Source of the DNA: a virus | Reading direction: 5' to 3' (one strand) | DNA: 64,000 nucleotides | IMG/VR virus record: IMGVR_UViG_3300038406_000196 | Span: 32,001-96,000 of that record | Part shown: positions 1 to 32,231 of the stretch, piece after piece | Numbering within the stretch: position 1 is the stretch's first letter | Layout of the letters: every line of letters begins with the position of its first letter | Position numbers and translations under genes: made by a program | The notes under the pieces: model-generated | What the model saw: the letters and a program-made list of their open reading frames with translations, nothing else | Databases searched by the model: none | What the model was told of the DNA's origin: nothing

Positions 1-41
1 GTCGGCAGGCGGCTCAAAGTCGAAGCTCCACTCGCGGGCGG

Positions 42-314
42 TCACCGGGAACCCCCCGCAACCGGCTCGGCGTCCAGCTTCCGGAGCAGCTTCCGCCGCT
101 GCCGCTCACTCAGACCACCCCAGATACCGGCCGGCTGCCGCGTCTCCAGTGCGAACGCTCTGCATTCCGGCTTCACCTCACAGCGGGAGCAGATCAGCTT
201 CGCGTAGTAGGTGGAGCCACCCTTCTCCGGGAAGAACGCCTCCCCGTCGCTGCCCTGACACCCGGCTCGTTCCATCCACTCCGGCTGGTCGGCGATCGAT
301 AGAACCCAGCTCAC
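42..314 (-). CDS. whiB: WhiB-family Fe-S transcription factor
   Basis: W..RAGC...FFP.KGG...AK.IC.RCEVK.EC..FAL.....GIWGGLSERQR, the 4-Cys/GxWGG signature. Confidence 0.93.
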   Translation of the reverse strand: MSWVLSIADQPEWMERAGCQGSDGEAFFPEKGGSTYYAKLICSRCEVKPECRAFALETRQPAGIWGGLSERQRRKLLRKLDAEPVAGGSR

Positions 315-748
315 CGGGACTCACCTGCCAGCAGCCGGGTAACGGTGGCATCCCAGTCCAGCTGTTCGGTCTCCCGGCCTTGTGGCACCACCACATAGGT
401 GCGGCGCAGGAACCGCACCAGCACGCTGCGCGGCACCTCGAACAGGGCGTTGCCGTCGGGGGACGAGAGCGCGAGCGCGACGGACTCCCCCCGTGGGGTG
501 GCCCACGGCCACACCCGGACATCGCCGATCCCGGCCGGCTCGTCAAGCCCGGTCACGAGCAGCTCCCGCGCGAACGACCAGCCGGACGCCTCACCCCCGG
601 CGGACTCGGCGTGGAACAGCACGTGAACCGCGTACGGGTCAGCTGGGTCGTAGCGGAGGCTGGCCCGCACCGGCAAAGCGGTGGCGTCGGGCTCGATCAG
701 TCGTAGCGACGTCTCCACCTCGACGGTCGTCGGCCGACGCTCACCCAT
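311..748 (-). CDS. ssgB: SsgA-like protein, SsgB type (sporulation cell-division activator)
   Basis: LRYDPADPYAV..LFH...WSFARELL..GL..PAGIGDVRVWP...LSSPDGNALFE...FLRRTY..VP.GRE; ATG 748 overlaps upstream stop. Confidence 0.9.
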   Translation of the reverse strand: MGERRPTTVEVETSLRLIEPDATALPVRASLRYDPADPYAVHVLFHAESAGGEASGWSFARELLVTGLDEPAGIGDVRVWPWATPRGESVALALSSPDGNALFEVPRSVLVRFLRRTYVVVPQGRETEQLDWDATVTRLLAGESR

Positions 749-15388: not shown

Positions 15389-15400
15389 ACCTCTATCCCT

Positions 15401-15625
15401 TCACCGGCCGGGACCGGCCGGAGTCTCAGTTGGTGGCTGTGCGCCGAGCGCCTGCATCAGCACAGCGAGCAGGTCCCACGCATCCACGGCGGTGCAGGTG
15501 ATGTGCTCCTCGCCGACCGCCACCTGGACCTCGGCGAACGGGTGGCCGGGTACGTACGACGCCGCGGCTTCGCCCGAGGCGCGGAAGATCGGAAGCGGAC
15601 CGGTGGGCATCGGCAGCGGGTTCAC
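15401..15625 (-). CDS. Hypothetical protein
   Basis: GTGA overlap with MTase stop. Confidence 0.55.
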   Translation of the reverse strand: MNPLPMPTGPLPIFRASGEAAASYVPGHPFAEVQVAVGEEHITCTAVDAWDLLAVLMQALGAQPPTETPAGPGR

Positions 15626-17745
15626 TGGGTCATCTCCAGCGGCAGGACGCCCTGGATTGGCTTGGACAGCCGGGCTCGGATCAGGGGGAGGTAGTCGGAC
15701 TCCCGCTCGATCGCAACGCACCGGAACCCCTCGGCGAGACACGCCTCGGCGGTAGTGCCGGATCCGGCGAATGGGTCCAGCACCAGGCCGCCCGCTGGCG
15801 TGACCAGCCGCACGAGCCAGCGCATCAGCGCCAACGGTTTGACCGTCGGGTGGGCCTTCCCGTTGACGCGTGGGCGCTCACTGGCGTCAGCCTTGGCCTC
15901 GTAGCGGAAGGCTGGGAAGAACCGGGATGCACCGCCAGCGTCGGCGTACTCGGTGCCGGTCGCAGTCATACGCCAGCCGTTGCCGCTGCCAGCTCCGCGT
16001 GGTTTCCCGGCGCGGGAGACCGTTGCCCCGCTCTGCTCATCTAGTTCGGCAACCGGGCAGCCGGGCACACACCCGTCGGCACAGGCGTCGCCCACCGGCC
16101 GGCCTGCCTCGTCAAGCAGCGGCGGGTGGGACAGCACCATATTGGTCGGCCACCGGCCGGCGTCGCTGCCGCTGGTCCAGGGATCCGGCGCGTACTGCTG
16201 GCCATTGGCGTAGCCGTCGCCAGTGAAGCGCGGGGCGGTGTTGTGTCGACGGGTGCTCTCGCTCGTCGCTACGCGGCAGCCGTCGATGTTCAGCGCCCCG
16301 GTGCCGTGCGCGAGCACATTGCCGGCGACTGTGCCGGCTAGGGGCTTACGCGCCACGACGATCGGCTCCCAGCCCGGTTTCAGCGCCGTACCCCAGCCCT
16401 GCCAGCGGTGGGCGTCGTCGGTGGCGGGGGCGGTGACGGTGGGCACGAACTCGCGGCCGTTGTCTTTGATCCACGAGCCGGTGCGGTTCTGGTCGGCGCC
16501 GGGGATCATCCGCTTCGCCGCCGGGCCTTCGGCGAGCACCTGCCGCTGCGCGCCGGCGGCCTTGTCGATCGCCTTGGACACGTTCAGCGACTTGGGGAAC
16601 CCGCTGCTGTACAGCCAACTGATCGTGTCGCGGATCTCGAACCCGGCGTCCTCGATCGCGCACACCAGCCGGTGCCAGGTGCGGGTACCACCGAAGGCGA
16701 CCAGATGCCCGCCTGGCTTCAACACCCGCAGACACTCCGCCGCCCAGGCGCCGCACCATCGCTGGAACGACGCAGGAGACTCCCAGCCGTCCCACGTCTT
16801 ACCCATGAACCCCCGAGAGCGTTTAGTACAATTGATCGTGTGCCAAGGAAGGTGGAGCGAGAGTGTCCCGCGTGTGGGCTGATCTATCACGCGGACGAGA
16901 CCCGGCTCCGAAACGGTCGCCAGACCACCTGCTCCCGCCGCTGTTCCTATCGGCTTAGGGGCGAGAACCAACAGCGGCGGGTTCGTATCCGGTGTGCCAC
17001 CTGCGGCGTAGAGATCACCCGTTCGCCGCGCCAGGTCAAGGCGAAGCATGGCGCCTCGTACTGCTCCCGGCGGTGCCACTACACCGGCCGCACCCTCGGC
17101 CTGACCGGGCGCGTCGTCACCAACCCGTACGTCCGCGTCGCCCCGCTGAATCCCGAGGCTCACGCCCGGACCGTCGCCACCCGCAAGGCTCGGGACAACT
17201 ACCGGCACAGCGATGACACCCGGCTCCGGCTCCGTGAAGCAACTGCACGTGCCATCGCAGAAGGTCGGGTCGCCAGTGTCAGCCGGTGCGAGGACGTAGT
17301 CGCCGAAGTGCTGGACCGCCTTGGCGTCGGCTACCGTCGCCAGGTGGCTATCCGGGGTGAGCGCGGACGCTACGTGGCCGCTGTCGACTTCCTGCTCGGC
17401 GACGGCCGAGCCGTCGAGGTGAACGGCACGTTCTGGCACGCCGACCCGCGCGTCTACCCGAACGGACCAGCCTTCCCCGCCCAGCGGCGGACGGCCGCAT
17501 GCTGGGACCGCAAGGTGAACGCTCTCGCTACGCTCGGGATCCCCGTCGTGATCATCTGGGAGATCGACCTCGCGGAGGATCCGACGCAAGCAGTCAGCGT
17601 CGCGCTTGCCGCTGTCTGACAGGTTGTACGGCGGGTCGGTCACTACCGCGTCGACGCTGCCCGCTCCAAGCTGGGGGAGCACCTGCAATGCGTCACCGTG
17701 GTGGAGGTCGACCTGGTCGTCTTGGTAGTACGGCTGGAGGCTCAC
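15622..17745 (-). CDS. Beta-class N6A/N4C DNA methyltransferase with a 269-codon in-frame insertion
   Basis: GDAL...SVDAVVTDPPY; FMGKTWD; RVLKPGG; HPTVKP.ALM; DPFAGSGTT; insertion 16813-17619 between DPPYNL and GFMGK. Confidence 0.88.
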   Translation of the reverse strand: MSLQPYYQDDQVDLHHGDALQVLPQLGAGSVDAVVTDPPYNLSDSGKRDADCLRRILREVDLPDDHDGDPERSESVHLAVPACGRPPLGGEGWSVRVDARVGVPERAVHLDGSAVAEQEVDSGHVASALTPDSHLATVADAKAVQHFGDYVLAPADTGDPTFCDGTCSCFTEPEPGVIAVPVVVPSLAGGDGPGVSLGIQRGDADVRVGDDAPGQAEGAAGVVAPPGAVRGAMLRLDLARRTGDLYAAGGTPDTNPPLLVLAPKPIGTAAGAGGLATVSEPGLVRVIDQPTRGTLSLHLPWHTINCTKRSRGFMGKTWDGWESPASFQRWCGAWAAECLRVLKPGGHLVAFGGTRTWHRLVCAIEDAGFEIRDTISWLYSSGFPKSLNVSKAIDKAAGAQRQVLAEGPAAKRMIPGADQNRTGSWIKDNGREFVPTVTAPATDDAHRWQGWGTALKPGWEPIVVARKPLAGTVAGNVLAHGTGALNIDGCRVATSESTRRHNTAPRFTGDGYANGQQYAPDPWTSGSDAGRWPTNMVLSHPPLLDEAGRPVGDACADGCVPGCPVAELDEQSGATVSRAGKPRGAGSGNGWRMTATGTEYADAGGASRFFPAFRYEAKADASERPRVNGKAHPTVKPLALMRWLVRLVTPAGGLVLDPFAGSGTTAEACLAEGFRCVAIERESDYLPLIRARLSKPIQGVLPLEMTQ
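16827..16832 (+). promoter_or_regulatory. -10 element (TACAAT) for leaderless nested endonuclease gene
   Basis: AT-rich island in 70% GC DNA, 7 nt upstream of GTG 16840. Confidence 0.65.
16840..17619 (+). CDS. Zn-finger + Vsr/DUF559-like (homing-type) endonuclease nested antisense in MTase
   Basis: CPAC..CSRRC and CATC..CSRRC units, NUMOD3-like HSDDTRLRLRE, S.CE...VDF...VEVNGTFWH...RK...G.PVVIIWE.D. Confidence 0.85.
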   Translation: MPRKVERECPACGLIYHADETRLRNGRQTTCSRRCSYRLRGENQQRRVRIRCATCGVEITRSPRQVKAKHGASYCSRRCHYTGRTLGLTGRVVTNPYVRVAPLNPEAHARTVATRKARDNYRHSDDTRLRLREATARAIAEGRVASVSRCEDVVAEVLDRLGVGYRRQVAIRGERGRYVAAVDFLLGDGRAVEVNGTFWHADPRVYPNGPAFPAQRRTAACWDRKVNALATLGIPVVIIWEIDLAEDPTQAVSVALAAV

Positions 17746-17912
17746 CGCGTCCGCCCTCCCCTCGGCGCAGCCAACGCCGCCCGACGGGCAGCCGACGATG
17801 CGGCCAGGGCACGCCCACGCCACCGACGGCGAGCGTGGGCCATCTCGCACGCGGCCACGGCAGCGTCGTGGCGCATCAGCCGCACGGTCGGGGACAGGTC
17901 ACGGGCGGTCAT
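17742..17912 (-). CDS. Small basic protein (56 aa)
   Basis: ATGA and GTGA overlaps. Confidence 0.55.
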   Translation of the reverse strand: MTARDLSPTVRLMRHDAAVAACEMAHARRRWRGRALAASSAARRAALAAPRGGRTR

Positions 17913-17930
17913 GCCGGCCACCGCCCGGAC

Positions 17931-17976
17931 TTGACGGGTGTAATTACACCCGCTACTGTTGAGGTGTAACTACACC
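17931..17976 (+). promoter_or_regulatory. Sigma70-type promoter with two palindromic operators
   Basis: TTGACG-17-TACTGT; perfect palindrome CGGGTGTAATTACACCCG (17935-17952) and GGTGTAACTACACC (17963-17976). Confidence 0.85.
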
Positions 17977-17989
17977 CCCGGAGGACACG

Positions 17990-18217
17990 ATGTACTACCG
18001 CAAGCTCATCGCCGGCCAGATCGGCACCAGCGACACCGCCACTGTCGGCCTCGTCGAAGAACTGATGCGCGCCGAACACGGCACCCTCGACCACCTCACC
18101 CCCGCCGAGTTCACCGACGCCATCACCGCCGCGCTCGTCGAAGCCCGCGACCTTGCAGCCACAGGCCAGCTGGGCGCCTGGTGCACTGCACTCGACATCC
18201 CGGTACCGGTCCGCTGA
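17990..18217 (+). CDS. Hypothetical protein of antisense cassette
   Basis: GGAGG RBS; downstream of consensus-like promoter. Confidence 0.8.
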   Translation: MYYRKLIAGQIGTSDTATVGLVEELMRAEHGTLDHLTPAEFTDAITAALVEARDLAATGQLGAWCTALDIPVPVR

Positions 18218-31737: not shown

Positions 31738-32231
31738 TGACCATGGCATTCGACCTGAGCAGGTACCTGGCCGACCAGCACCACACCGGCTCCACCTGGT
31801 GGCTGTACCGGTTCCCATCCGGCCGGTCCGCCTCGGTGGAACCTGACGCACGTCCGGAGCACCCGTTCCGGTTCGAGGTGCAGGTCGACGACCAGCAGCC
31901 CATGTCGGGGCTGACCTCCGATCAGGTGGAGGCGAAGCTGGCCGAGGTGTACGCCCTACCGAAGCCGGAGTTGATCGTGGCTTGGGTGAACGTGGACGAG
32001 CGGGGCCACCTGATCCCGTGGGGCGAGCGCATGAACGGCTCCACGGTCACGGTCGGCGACGACACGTGGTCGGTGCCGAACAAGGTGGAGCACGGCGGGG
32101 TGCTGTGGATGTCCCGTGTCAGCTACGCCCTGCGGGAGTTCGGCTGGCGGCCGGCGAACGGAGCAGACCATGACTTCACCCGGCCCGGCGTCATCGGGGT
32201 GCCGGTCGAGCGGATCGACACCAAGGAGTGA
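31734..32231 (+). CDS. Hypothetical protein
   Basis: GAGGAG RBS, coupled. Confidence 0.7.
   Translation: MMTMAFDLSRYLADQHHTGSTWWLYRFPSGRSASVEPDARPEHPFRFEVQVDDQQPMSGLTSDQVEAKLAEVYALPKPELIVAWVNVDERGHLIPWGERMNGSTVTVGDDTWSVPNKVEHGGVLWMSRVSYALREFGWRPANGADHDFTRPGVIGVPVERIDTKE

Follow-up and report, generated by a model that had tools for sequence, protein, structure and literature searches.

The viral record IMGVR_UViG_3300038406_000196 was analysed over its positions 32,001 to 96,000, a stretch of 64,000 nucleotides (nt) that is hereafter called the window and to which all positions refer. On its minus strand, a DNA methyltransferase (methylase) gene is interrupted directly after the codons of motif IV by an 807-nt insert, which carries on the plus strand the gene of a Vsr-like endonuclease. 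The frame 15622–17745 has no internal stop codon, and from position 17742 it translates into 706 amino acids (aa; P0001). The features of the locus, including the read-through open reading frame (ORF), are as follows.

15622–17745, minus strand: read-through methyltransferase ORF, 707 codons from the GTG at 17743–17745, stop codon (15622–15624) included
17620–17745, minus strand: methyltransferase N-terminal "exon", 42 codons, ending with motif IV DPPYNL (17620–17637), as aligned to uninterrupted homologues
16813–17619: mobile insert, 807 nt or 269 codons, without stops in the methylase frame, its codons aligned antisense to those of the endonuclease frame
16840–17619, plus strand: endonuclease gene, 259 aa, GTG start, TGA stop at the junction
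16813–16839, plus strand: spacer 5′ of the endonuclease start, 27 nt, with a −10-like TACAAT; its methylase-frame reading is TINCTKRSR
15622–16812, minus strand: methyltransferase C-terminal "exon", 396 codons plus stop, beginning with GFMGKTWD and carrying motif I DPFAGSGTT near its end

In the methylase frame, the protein reads ...VDAVVTDPPYNL, then continues through the 269 insert codons, which match no protein family, and resumes with GFMGKTWDGW.... It scored 116.5 bits with the Pfam beta-class profile PF01555 (N6_N4_Mtase), whose cut-off is 26.7, and motif IV DPPYNL (residues 36–41) lies N-terminal of motif I DPFAGSGTT, which is the beta-class order. Uninterrupted mycobacteriophage methylases matched by blastn, for example those of PopTart, Xeno, and Bobi, have DPPY-x-L-x-FMGK at this place (Xeno gp59, DPPYGLEFMGKEWD), and in the alignment with mycobacteriophage methylases the extra DNA of the window is exactly the 807 nt at 16813–17619. 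The endonuclease ORF occupies the whole insert except 27 nt, and its TGA (17617–17619) lies opposite the Ser codon after DPPYNL, of which it is the reverse complement; the remaining four frames of the insert contain 6–10 stops. A first-pass annotation, made from the letters of the sequence, had described a DPPYxL/FMGK stretch split by 807 nt with an open methylase frame, an endonuclease stop codon at the junction, and only about 27 nt outside the endonuclease ORF that carry TACAAT. ORF analysis and homologue alignment agree with the split and the open frame, the stop codon lies where it had been placed, and the hexamer was located at 16827–16832, 7 nt before the endonuclease GTG. The public gene call for this record starts the methylase at the Met of FMGK (15622–16803, 394 aa, P0123), so that the N-terminal exon and the read-through frame are missing from protein databases.

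The endonuclease (P0002) is a real, conserved gene under purifying selection. The ratio of nonsynonymous to synonymous substitution (dN/dS, omega) in its frame was 0.15–0.38 in all diverged pairs and 0.26–0.66 in near-identical pairs, which hold very few substitutions, and 124 homologues were found at E ≤ 1e-3, mostly 255–270 aa long. In the protein, two CxxC...CxxxC zinc ribbons are joined by a helical linker to a Vsr-like nuclease domain (EDxHD-type) at the C terminus. Conserved columns of a 32-sequence alignment were the Cys of the two zinc ribbons and a C-terminal EVNGTFWHxDP-type motif; E151, E193, H200, and E241 were invariant and D183 and D202 nearly so, these being alignment columns rather than residues mapped one by one onto the Vsr active site. 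The AlphaFold 2 (AF2) model had a mean pLDDT (predicted local distance difference test) score of 87.2, and its best Foldseek matches in the PDB were 1cw0_A (Escherichia coli Vsr, E 1.9e-4), 1vsr (1.8e-3), and 3r3p_A (I-Bth0305I, E 2.2e-3), each with a probability of 1.00. The zinc-finger/Vsr-like ORF proposed for the opposite strand at 16840–17619 was thus confirmed by the ORF itself, the zinc ribbons, and the fold matches. A tblastn search of the window endonuclease against 50,697 phage records returned nothing at E ≤ 1e-5; a diverged mycobacteriophage relative surfaced via the locus of phage Willsammy only.

A TAnnnT hexamer occurred in the first 30 nt of the insert at 49 of 61 non-identical junctions, against a background of 18.5%, and 22 junctions had an upstream TG. 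At 25 junctions the hexamer stood at offset 9, which is 17 nt after a TTGCCC-like hexamer antisense to the G-K codons of FMGK; at nine it stood at offset 24, with TTGCG or TTGAC at the insert edge; and at six (the window and loci L008, L100, L102, L103, and L105) it stood at offset 14. Since a two-hexamer sigma-70 and terminator scan gave no site in the element region of the window, the −10 assignment is drawn from comparative position. A Shine-Dalgarno sequence precedes the endonuclease start in many loci, and none does in the window, L008, or L009, where the start follows the −10 hexamer by 7–9 nt. This spacing suggests that the endonuclease message of these three loci is leaderless.

Homologous inserts, stop avoidance, and mobility

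A first set of 92 loci (78 on viral contigs and 14 on genome contigs) was retrieved with the endonuclease alignment, and methylase exons were located in them by tblastn with the two methylase parts of the window. In 34 of the 92, both parts flanked the endonuclease on the opposite strand. The inserts were 765–852 nt long in 31 of these 34 loci, and all 31 were a multiple of three (3n) in length and stop-free in the methylase frame; of the other three, L020 and L039 have short gaps and L045 has a 27-aa in-frame extra without a nested endonuclease. Four loci missed by tblastn, L026–L028 (846 nt, 47% GC) and L051 (744 nt), were likewise 3n and stop-free. All 29 non-identical inserts were codon-aligned antisense to the endonuclease, and in 23 of them the endonuclease stop had an offset of 0 (antisense of the Ser after DPPYxL) or +3 (antisense of the Leu in DPPYxL). 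Only 0–57 nt of these inserts lay beyond the endonuclease ORF and its leader, and the insertion point fell between DPPYxL and GFMGK in all nested loci.

In the aligned endonuclease frame, the codons that stop the methylase are TTA, CTA, and TCA, all of which can be replaced synonymously. For the window by itself, the probability of finding none of them in 269 codons was 0.046, given the codon use of 45 long ORFs of the window, and 8 of 26 long control ORFs of the window had an equally long open codon-aligned antisense run. The caution that had accompanied the first-pass annotation, namely, that the open frame alone is weak, was therefore justified. Across the inserts, however, GC content ranged from 0.38 to 0.68, and the probability of zero antisense stops, calculated from the codon use of flanking ORFs, fell to 4.5e-7 in L029 (38% GC), 6e-6 in L021, 1.6e-5 in L025, 2.7e-5 in L023, and 3.2e-5 in L041. 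Among Leu and Ser codons, TTA, CTA, and TCA numbered 0 of 957 in the pooled inserts versus 982 of 8201 (12%) in flanking ORFs (Fisher 1e-50, uncorrected for phylogeny, the control "genes" for codon statistics being crude, uncurated longest-ORF picks). The other four frames had 1–40 stops each across inserts. The stop test is the strong one, because the 3n indels forced by the endonuclease's own frame bear on length and not on stops. Comparison of the sequences thus shows that the methylase frame is kept open by selection.

For replication, the best 80 of 315 relatives from a metagenome-contig scan were taken, and 96 non-identical endonuclease copies that reached 190 aa and 36% identity were entered in a census. 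These were classed by methylase motifs accepted in any frame, so that the classes are independent of stops. Antisense stops were found in 1 of 61 copies nested between both exon motifs (L128), in 1 of 6 with one side cut by a contig end (L171), and in 13 of 29 outside a methylase frame (up to 22 stops). Below 55% GC, stops occurred in 0 of 29 nested versus 10 of 12 outside copies (Fisher 6e-8). L128, called nested with one stop by the automatic classification, is really a cassette with two N exons, the old one truncated and on the endonuclease's right, the second complete and on its left, and its methylase is not read through the endonuclease. Three other automatic calls need a comment: L171, "one side cut" with five stops, has as its C exon a 10-aa remnant followed by unrelated sequence; L089 was called "outside_other" though nested in the first set; and the contig of L163, called outside, ends 152 nt past the endonuclease. 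The census thresholds removed L035, L037, L041, L044, L045, L051, L055, L056, L064, and L075, among which L037, L041, and L051 are nested and stop-free. The expectation that homologous inserts are always 3n and stop-free thus held in 31 of 31 loci and four more and, in the census, in 60 of 61, with L128 a different cassette. By this comparison, avoidance of the three codons is a property of position inside the methylase frame and not of the endonuclease family.

The peptide that the insert encodes in the methylase frame showed no sign of constraint. Its omega was 0.70–1.17 in nine diverged pairs (the near-identical pair L026/L028 gave no usable dN/dS), and the third-position entropy of conserved four-fold codons was 1.60 bits in the endonuclease (n = 13) versus 1.69 in the methylase exons (n = 10; p 0.83). 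A functional, dual-coding antisense domain was rejected by these omega and entropy tests. In the AF2 model of the methylase, built on a 20-sequence alignment, pLDDT was 23–39 over residues 40–319. The insert peptide is best described as meaningless sequence, neutral and probably disordered, which need only not stop translation.

No Hint or intein Pfam family was matched at E ≤ 0.1 in the methylase ORF, and no Rfam family at E ≤ 1 on either strand of 15400–18100, a search that covers catalogued ribozymes. The residue after the insert is G, followed by F, in all loci, and the last residues of the insert are not conserved. The window, L008, and L009 end the insert with H-x-x-N followed by C or S; this ending is missing from most loci, and its H is explained as the antisense of the endonuclease ATG or GTG start. 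An intein was rejected on the Pfam result and on the junction residues, which include no C, S, or T at position +1 and no conserved terminal Asn. Removal at the RNA level is disfavoured because the frame is selected to stay open. The earlier statement that ribozyme and intein features are lacking is consistent with all of these results, which support the view that neither RNA nor protein splicing is involved.

Near-identical elements were found in diverged methylases. Between L011 and L012, the dS of the element was 0.015 and that of the exon 1.02, and L012/L014, L030/L031, and L038/L040 gave similar pictures. In sliding windows, L011 and L012 were 95–100% identical over the insert, about 190 nt of the C exon, and 60–100 nt of the N exon, and 35–45% identical beyond. 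Horizontal transfer of the element is shown by this comparison of sequences, and the identity pattern is the footprint expected of homing with co-conversion, so that the proposal of a homing-type selfish element is supported. In a maximum-likelihood (ML) tree of 42 endonucleases, the 31 nested copies and four copies of a sister clade grouped together (94/98) against other free-standing relatives. The median terminal branch in the tree was 0.45, so the open frame survived extensive divergence.

Some loci have further peculiarities at the element's edges. In L149 the target region is duplicated on both sides of the element (DPPYGLEFMNLKFDAPWK ... IEFMGKEWDAPWK), and L155 (34% GC, 0 antisense stops) and L171 have only a short FM..WD remnant beside the endonuclease, which looks as though the cassette took some exon sequence along when it moved.

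The interrupted methylase and related arrangements

The methylase alignment comprised 20 of 22 sequences of simple architecture; L014 and L086 were omitted because they nearly duplicate others, and no locus with an extra insert or a cut end was admitted. Across these 20 insert-bearing methylases of 30–57% identity, DPPY, motif I, and many other columns were invariant. Omega of the C exon was 0.12–0.44, and it was 0.25 between the window and L008, whose element dS is 0.83 and exon dS 1.20. In the methylase model, pLDDT was 88–93 at residues 11–39 and 66–94 over much of the C part, and the model could be superposed on the CcrM-DNA structure 6pbd_B with Z 27.1 and a root-mean-square deviation of 2.5 over 226 aligned residues (model range 8..702).

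The site itself varies in length. Among the best 120 homologues of the C part, the distance between DPPY and FMGK was at most 4 residues in 101; two (P0142 and P0235), each called as one ORF, contain a homologous insert of 273 aa, six have in-frame extras of 5, 14, 30, or 31 aa (P0170, P0233, P0238, P0127, P0137, and P0225), and 11 were unmatched by the patterns, two of which start at the Met of FMGK (P0123 and P0173). The 27-aa extra of L045 lies between DPPYxL and GFMGK, and L166 also has an in-frame extra there. The stub of P0170 (TSGKKGG...RSRITTGG) compares with the ends of the L011 insert (TSGRPP...DKRSRG), which suggests that such in-frame stubs are deletion remnants of the element. CcrM has about 22 residues between DPPYNL and WD. 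These observations support a length-tolerant loop after motif IV, without amounting to proof for 269 residues. The closest methylase homologue was 62–65% identical, and no near-identical insert-free sister allele was present in the database searched; in three metagenome samples, one of which is probably the source sample, no contig joint skipping 16813–17619 was found and no empty allele was recovered. A soil metagenome of another study contained 151-nt contigs identical to the insert parts 16953–17103 and 17186–17336, and a second sediment sample contained pieces identical to the methylase exon; the phage or its element is therefore not confined to a single sample.

In a sister clade (support 100/99), the endonuclease and a methylase gene are divergently oriented, with the endonuclease immediately upstream. 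The methylase gene has a stop right after DPPYx, which is followed by a 5- to 17-nt spacer. Loci with the stop after DPPYx are L020, L022, L032, L039, L057, L118, L124, L128, L134, L135, L136, L144, L147, L148, L153, L160, and L174. In 14 of 16 complete clade junctions and in L057, a synonymous "landing" codon (Gly-Gly, Glu-Glu, Asp-Asp, or Tyr-Tyr) precedes (L/I)xFMGK, often in another frame; L136 and L147 have no matched landing codon. In most of the spacers ..TACC.. occurs, which is the −10 box of the element read in antisense, and L128 keeps its truncated old N exon beside the new one. These sequences would fit ribosome hopping, but equally a gene that is split or dead.

Cultured mycobacteriophages carry a related element. 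Willsammy (L005:1138-1935, plus strand), Seagreen gp73 (L181), KilKor (L180), and Fishburne encode a homologous zinc-ribbon/Vsr-like endonuclease (hhalign probability 98.9%, E 1.5e-17), which is again antisense to a methylase of this family but occupies a second site, close to the HPTVKP motif. The full gene was found in 18 phage records, and its last 48 codons only, as a remnant, in 69 more. It is annotated as "DNA endonuclease (vsr)" in Seagreen, and in Willsammy, Fishburne, and others the codon-aligned antisense frame is annotated as a 262-aa "hypothetical protein" (gp53).

Several side observations concern these methylases. In StevieRay (gp58-60, L001) and Bobi (gp73-75, L002), the annotation divides the methylase close to its C terminus: the N part runs out in ...ERPSVVTTKLRLRADLTPEQVD...*, and a 30-aa ORF recovers ...VAHPT*, with a frameshift into VKPL.... 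The tail appears to be an antisense remnant of a Willsammy-type endonuclease. A canonical intein (WLYG|CL...N|SGFPKSL) is present in the methylases of Bobi (L002), StAnnes (L003), Akhila (L004), and Willsammy (L005), and in the Akhila methylase FMAKTWD is also followed by a lone in-frame LAGLIDADG domain. The intein and the lone LAGLIDADG are published elements of this methylase family (PMC9957025). Gaps of tblastn alignments at the WLY|SGFPK position in L010, L032, and L039 suggest inteins in some metagenomic loci.

Mechanism, rival explanations, and meaning

We consider it likely that the insert is a homing-type antisense element in the methylase gene, the frame of which is spared by being read through as a tolerated loop, without splicing. 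The element would be little more than an endonuclease gene and a short promoter region, placed in reverse between the DPPYNL and GFMGK codons. Transcribed from its own −10 and antisense to the methylase, the endonuclease would cut insert-free methylase alleles of co-infecting phages at the conserved DPPY/FMGK coding DNA, and recombinational repair would place a copy of the element in the cut allele, together with anything from a few dozen to about 200 nt of the adjoining exon; the allele that carries the element would be immune because the insert splits the target. As the comparison of loci shows, selection on the synonymous codons of the endonuclease has purged every TTA, CTA, and TCA and so kept the methylase frame open. 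Ribosomes would then read the 42 N-terminal codons, about 269 meaningless codons, and the 396 C-terminal codons, and the junk would loop out at a naturally length-variable position after motif IV, with the two parts still able to assemble into the methyltransferase fold. The first-pass annotation had left it open whether the insert is read as a loop or bypassed. The loop option fits the data, whereas bypass is not needed in the window, where the methylase frame contains no stop; a gene 60-like bypass pattern (stop, gap, and matched landing codon) is absent from the window and occurs in sister-clade loci only.

Several points weigh against this account of a homing element that is read through. 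A 269-aa loop directly after catalytic motif IV, by the base-binding pocket, could well impair catalysis, and the intact exons could stem partly from recent invasion of functional alleles rather than from long-term selection with the insert in place. L120 and L151, nested and stop-free, have DSPYGL and DPSYGL instead of DPPY, and their methylases may be catalytically impaired though the frames are open. The second-site mycobacteriophage element splits its methylase with a stop, and the gene is annotated in pieces, so read-through is not the sole tolerated outcome. The stop statistics pool related sequences, and the open frame could have been selected to avoid transcriptional polarity and not to keep methylase activity. 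Finally, the window protein scored 13.5 bits with Pfam Vsr (PF03852), below the gathering score of 27, so that its Vsr assignment is based on fold and motif; a few endonuclease homologues have a precomputed PF03852 match.

The main live rival is that read-through was selected against Rho-type polarity or decay that would silence downstream phage genes, with the methylase as dead weight; we regard it as unlikely, but with a share of probability that has to be reckoned with. It explains the 3n length and the stop-free frame equally well, and the degenerate motif IV of L120 and L151 in open frames would suit it, as would the Willsammy-type mycobacteriophages, in which the antisense frame is annotated as an ORF overlapping the stops and starts of its neighbours (gp52, gp53, and gp54), like translational coupling across a broken methylase. 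It is less easily reconciled with the invariance of motif IV, motif I, and many columns in the 20 insert-bearing methylases and with the low exon omega, which extends to pairs with similar divergence in element and exon (window versus L008). Moreover, in-frame stubs of 14–31 aa remain in otherwise full-length methylases after apparent endonuclease loss.

Improbable, in our judgement, is a split methylase, in which a short N-terminal peptide with a junk tail and a C-terminal protein begun at the Met of FMGK would assemble non-covalently, much as with genes that homing endonucleases have split in other phages. The gene calls P0123 (394 aa) and P0173 start at this Met, a G-rich stretch precedes its ATG, the sister clade and L057 have a stop right after DPPYx, and the second-site mycobacteriophage methylases are annotated as split around the antisense Vsr gene. 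A split protein, however, needs neither a 3n length nor some 270 stop-free codons, yet both were found in about 60 nested loci and lapse outside the frame, and the GGGGG is only 3 nt from the ATG, a poor spacing for a ribosome-binding site.

Still less probable is cryptic splicing, either by an intron on the methylase strand that has escaped recognition or by an intein of atypical kind encoded antisense to the endonuclease. Insertion at a highly conserved catalytic motif is typical for introns and inteins, the H-x-x-N and C/S at the insert end of the window, L008, and L009 recall an intein, and inteins with antisense VSR-like or LAGLIDADG endonucleases exist (bioRxiv 10.1101/2025.01.02.630785). 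Against this stand the negative Rfam (E ≤ 1) and Hint/intein Pfam (E ≤ 0.1) searches, the G or F after the insert in all loci, the neutral methylase-frame peptide (omega 0.7–1.2) with no confident fold, and the 0–57 nt outside the endonuclease ORF and its leader; an intron, besides, would not need an open frame. Least probable of all is that the methylase gene of this GC-rich phage was recently disrupted and is decaying as a pseudogene, its frame being open by chance. The window's own probability of about 0.046, the 8 equally open ORFs among 26 controls, and the failure to recover an insert-free sister allele might point to this, but the same state recurs without nested exceptions at GC contents as low as 38% in about 60 non-identical loci, the two exons are intact and lack none of the motifs, and the nested loci are far from clonal (endonuclease identity down to 36%, median terminal branch 0.45).

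A wider reading that joins the nested element with its sister clade can be offered tentatively, at odds somewhat below even: antisense nesting would be a third route to a harmless endonuclease, the loci would form a series from read-through to hopping or splitting, and part of the promoter, its −35, would come from the FMGK codons. On this joint reading, a reverse 3n insertion into a tolerant loop may persist because only three synonymously replaceable codons have to be purged. A clade nested within the in-frame forms would have gained a spare N exon, and there a stop-first spacer of 5–17 nt would replace the 270-codon read-through; the spacer would be an antisense remnant of the element's −10 box, and the −35 hexamer of many elements would be the antisense of the G-K codons of FMGK.

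Among known systems, I-Bth0305I is reportedly a Vsr-like (EDxHD) homing endonuclease of Bacillus phage 0305phi8-36, encoded within a self-splicing group I intron in recA. The window enzyme resembles it in the fold of the catalytic domain (3r3p) and in being a phage homing endonuclease that would target a conserved gene; it differs by its two N-terminal zinc ribbons and by the lack of an intron. The T4 gene 60/mobA system is said to consist of a homing-endonuclease cassette that leaves a short, stop-bearing gap of 50 nt flanked by matched codons. It bears on the sister clade alone, where the gaps are 5–17 nt; the window has neither stop nor gap. The antisense vsr gene of the cultured mycobacteriophages shares with the window a homologous endonuclease and the same methylase family, and differs by its HPTVKP site and by the stop in the methylase frame.

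Closest in kind is the ShiLan domain, described by Gosselin et al. 2023 (PMC9957025) and Arsenault, Gosselin and Gogarten 2025 (PMC11855218) as a 202-aa stop-free, non-splicing insertion in actinobacteriophage PF01555 methylases that hides an HNH endonuclease in frame 3 (+3) of the same strand. Its in-frame product has a low-confidence structure and was proposed (PMC11855218) to be a retained loop that does not block the methylase. ShiLan and the present element share the methylase family, to which the blastn matches PopTart, Xeno, and Bobi belong, an in-frame stop-free insert, the lack of intron and intein features, and a patchy, horizontally transferred distribution; ShiLan, however, is HNH, on the same strand, and at another site, whereas the element here is Vsr-like, on the opposite strand, codon-aligned, and directly after motif IV. 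Here, stop avoidance costs only synonymous codon choice, and it was shown statistically across GC contents with an outside-frame control. The inteins with antisense LAGLIDADG or VSR-like endonucleases have DNA polymerase, minor capsid, terminase, and thymidylate synthase as reported hosts (bioRxiv 10.1101/2025.01.02.630785). They likewise place an endonuclease antisense to a region translated in the host frame, one type being VSR-like, but their flanking Hint domains excise the junk, whereas the present element has no splicing domain and is roughly the endonuclease gene alone. What is new here is the antisense, Vsr-like, motif-IV version; a non-splicing stop-free endonuclease insert in this methylase family was already published (2023, 2025). 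In the literature searched, which comprised few subscription journals and no supplements, no intein-less antisense Vsr-like endonuclease was described at the DPPY/FMGK site.

To our knowledge, homing endonuclease genes have been thought to persist in essential or useful genes only by means of self-splicing introns or inteins. The element uses neither, and selection on the synonymous codons of a selfish gene can keep the host frame on the opposite strand open. The finding extends the single published case of non-splicing read-through, ShiLan, to the other strand, to another nuclease family and site, and to a wide range of uncultured phages. Gene callers mis-annotate such loci, as with the methylase begun at an internal Met here and the antisense junk recorded as a "hypothetical protein" in mycobacteriophages. 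As a candidate long-target enzyme, the nuclease has a target that can be deduced from empty alleles, and beta-class methyltransferases appear to tolerate insertions at the site after motif IV.

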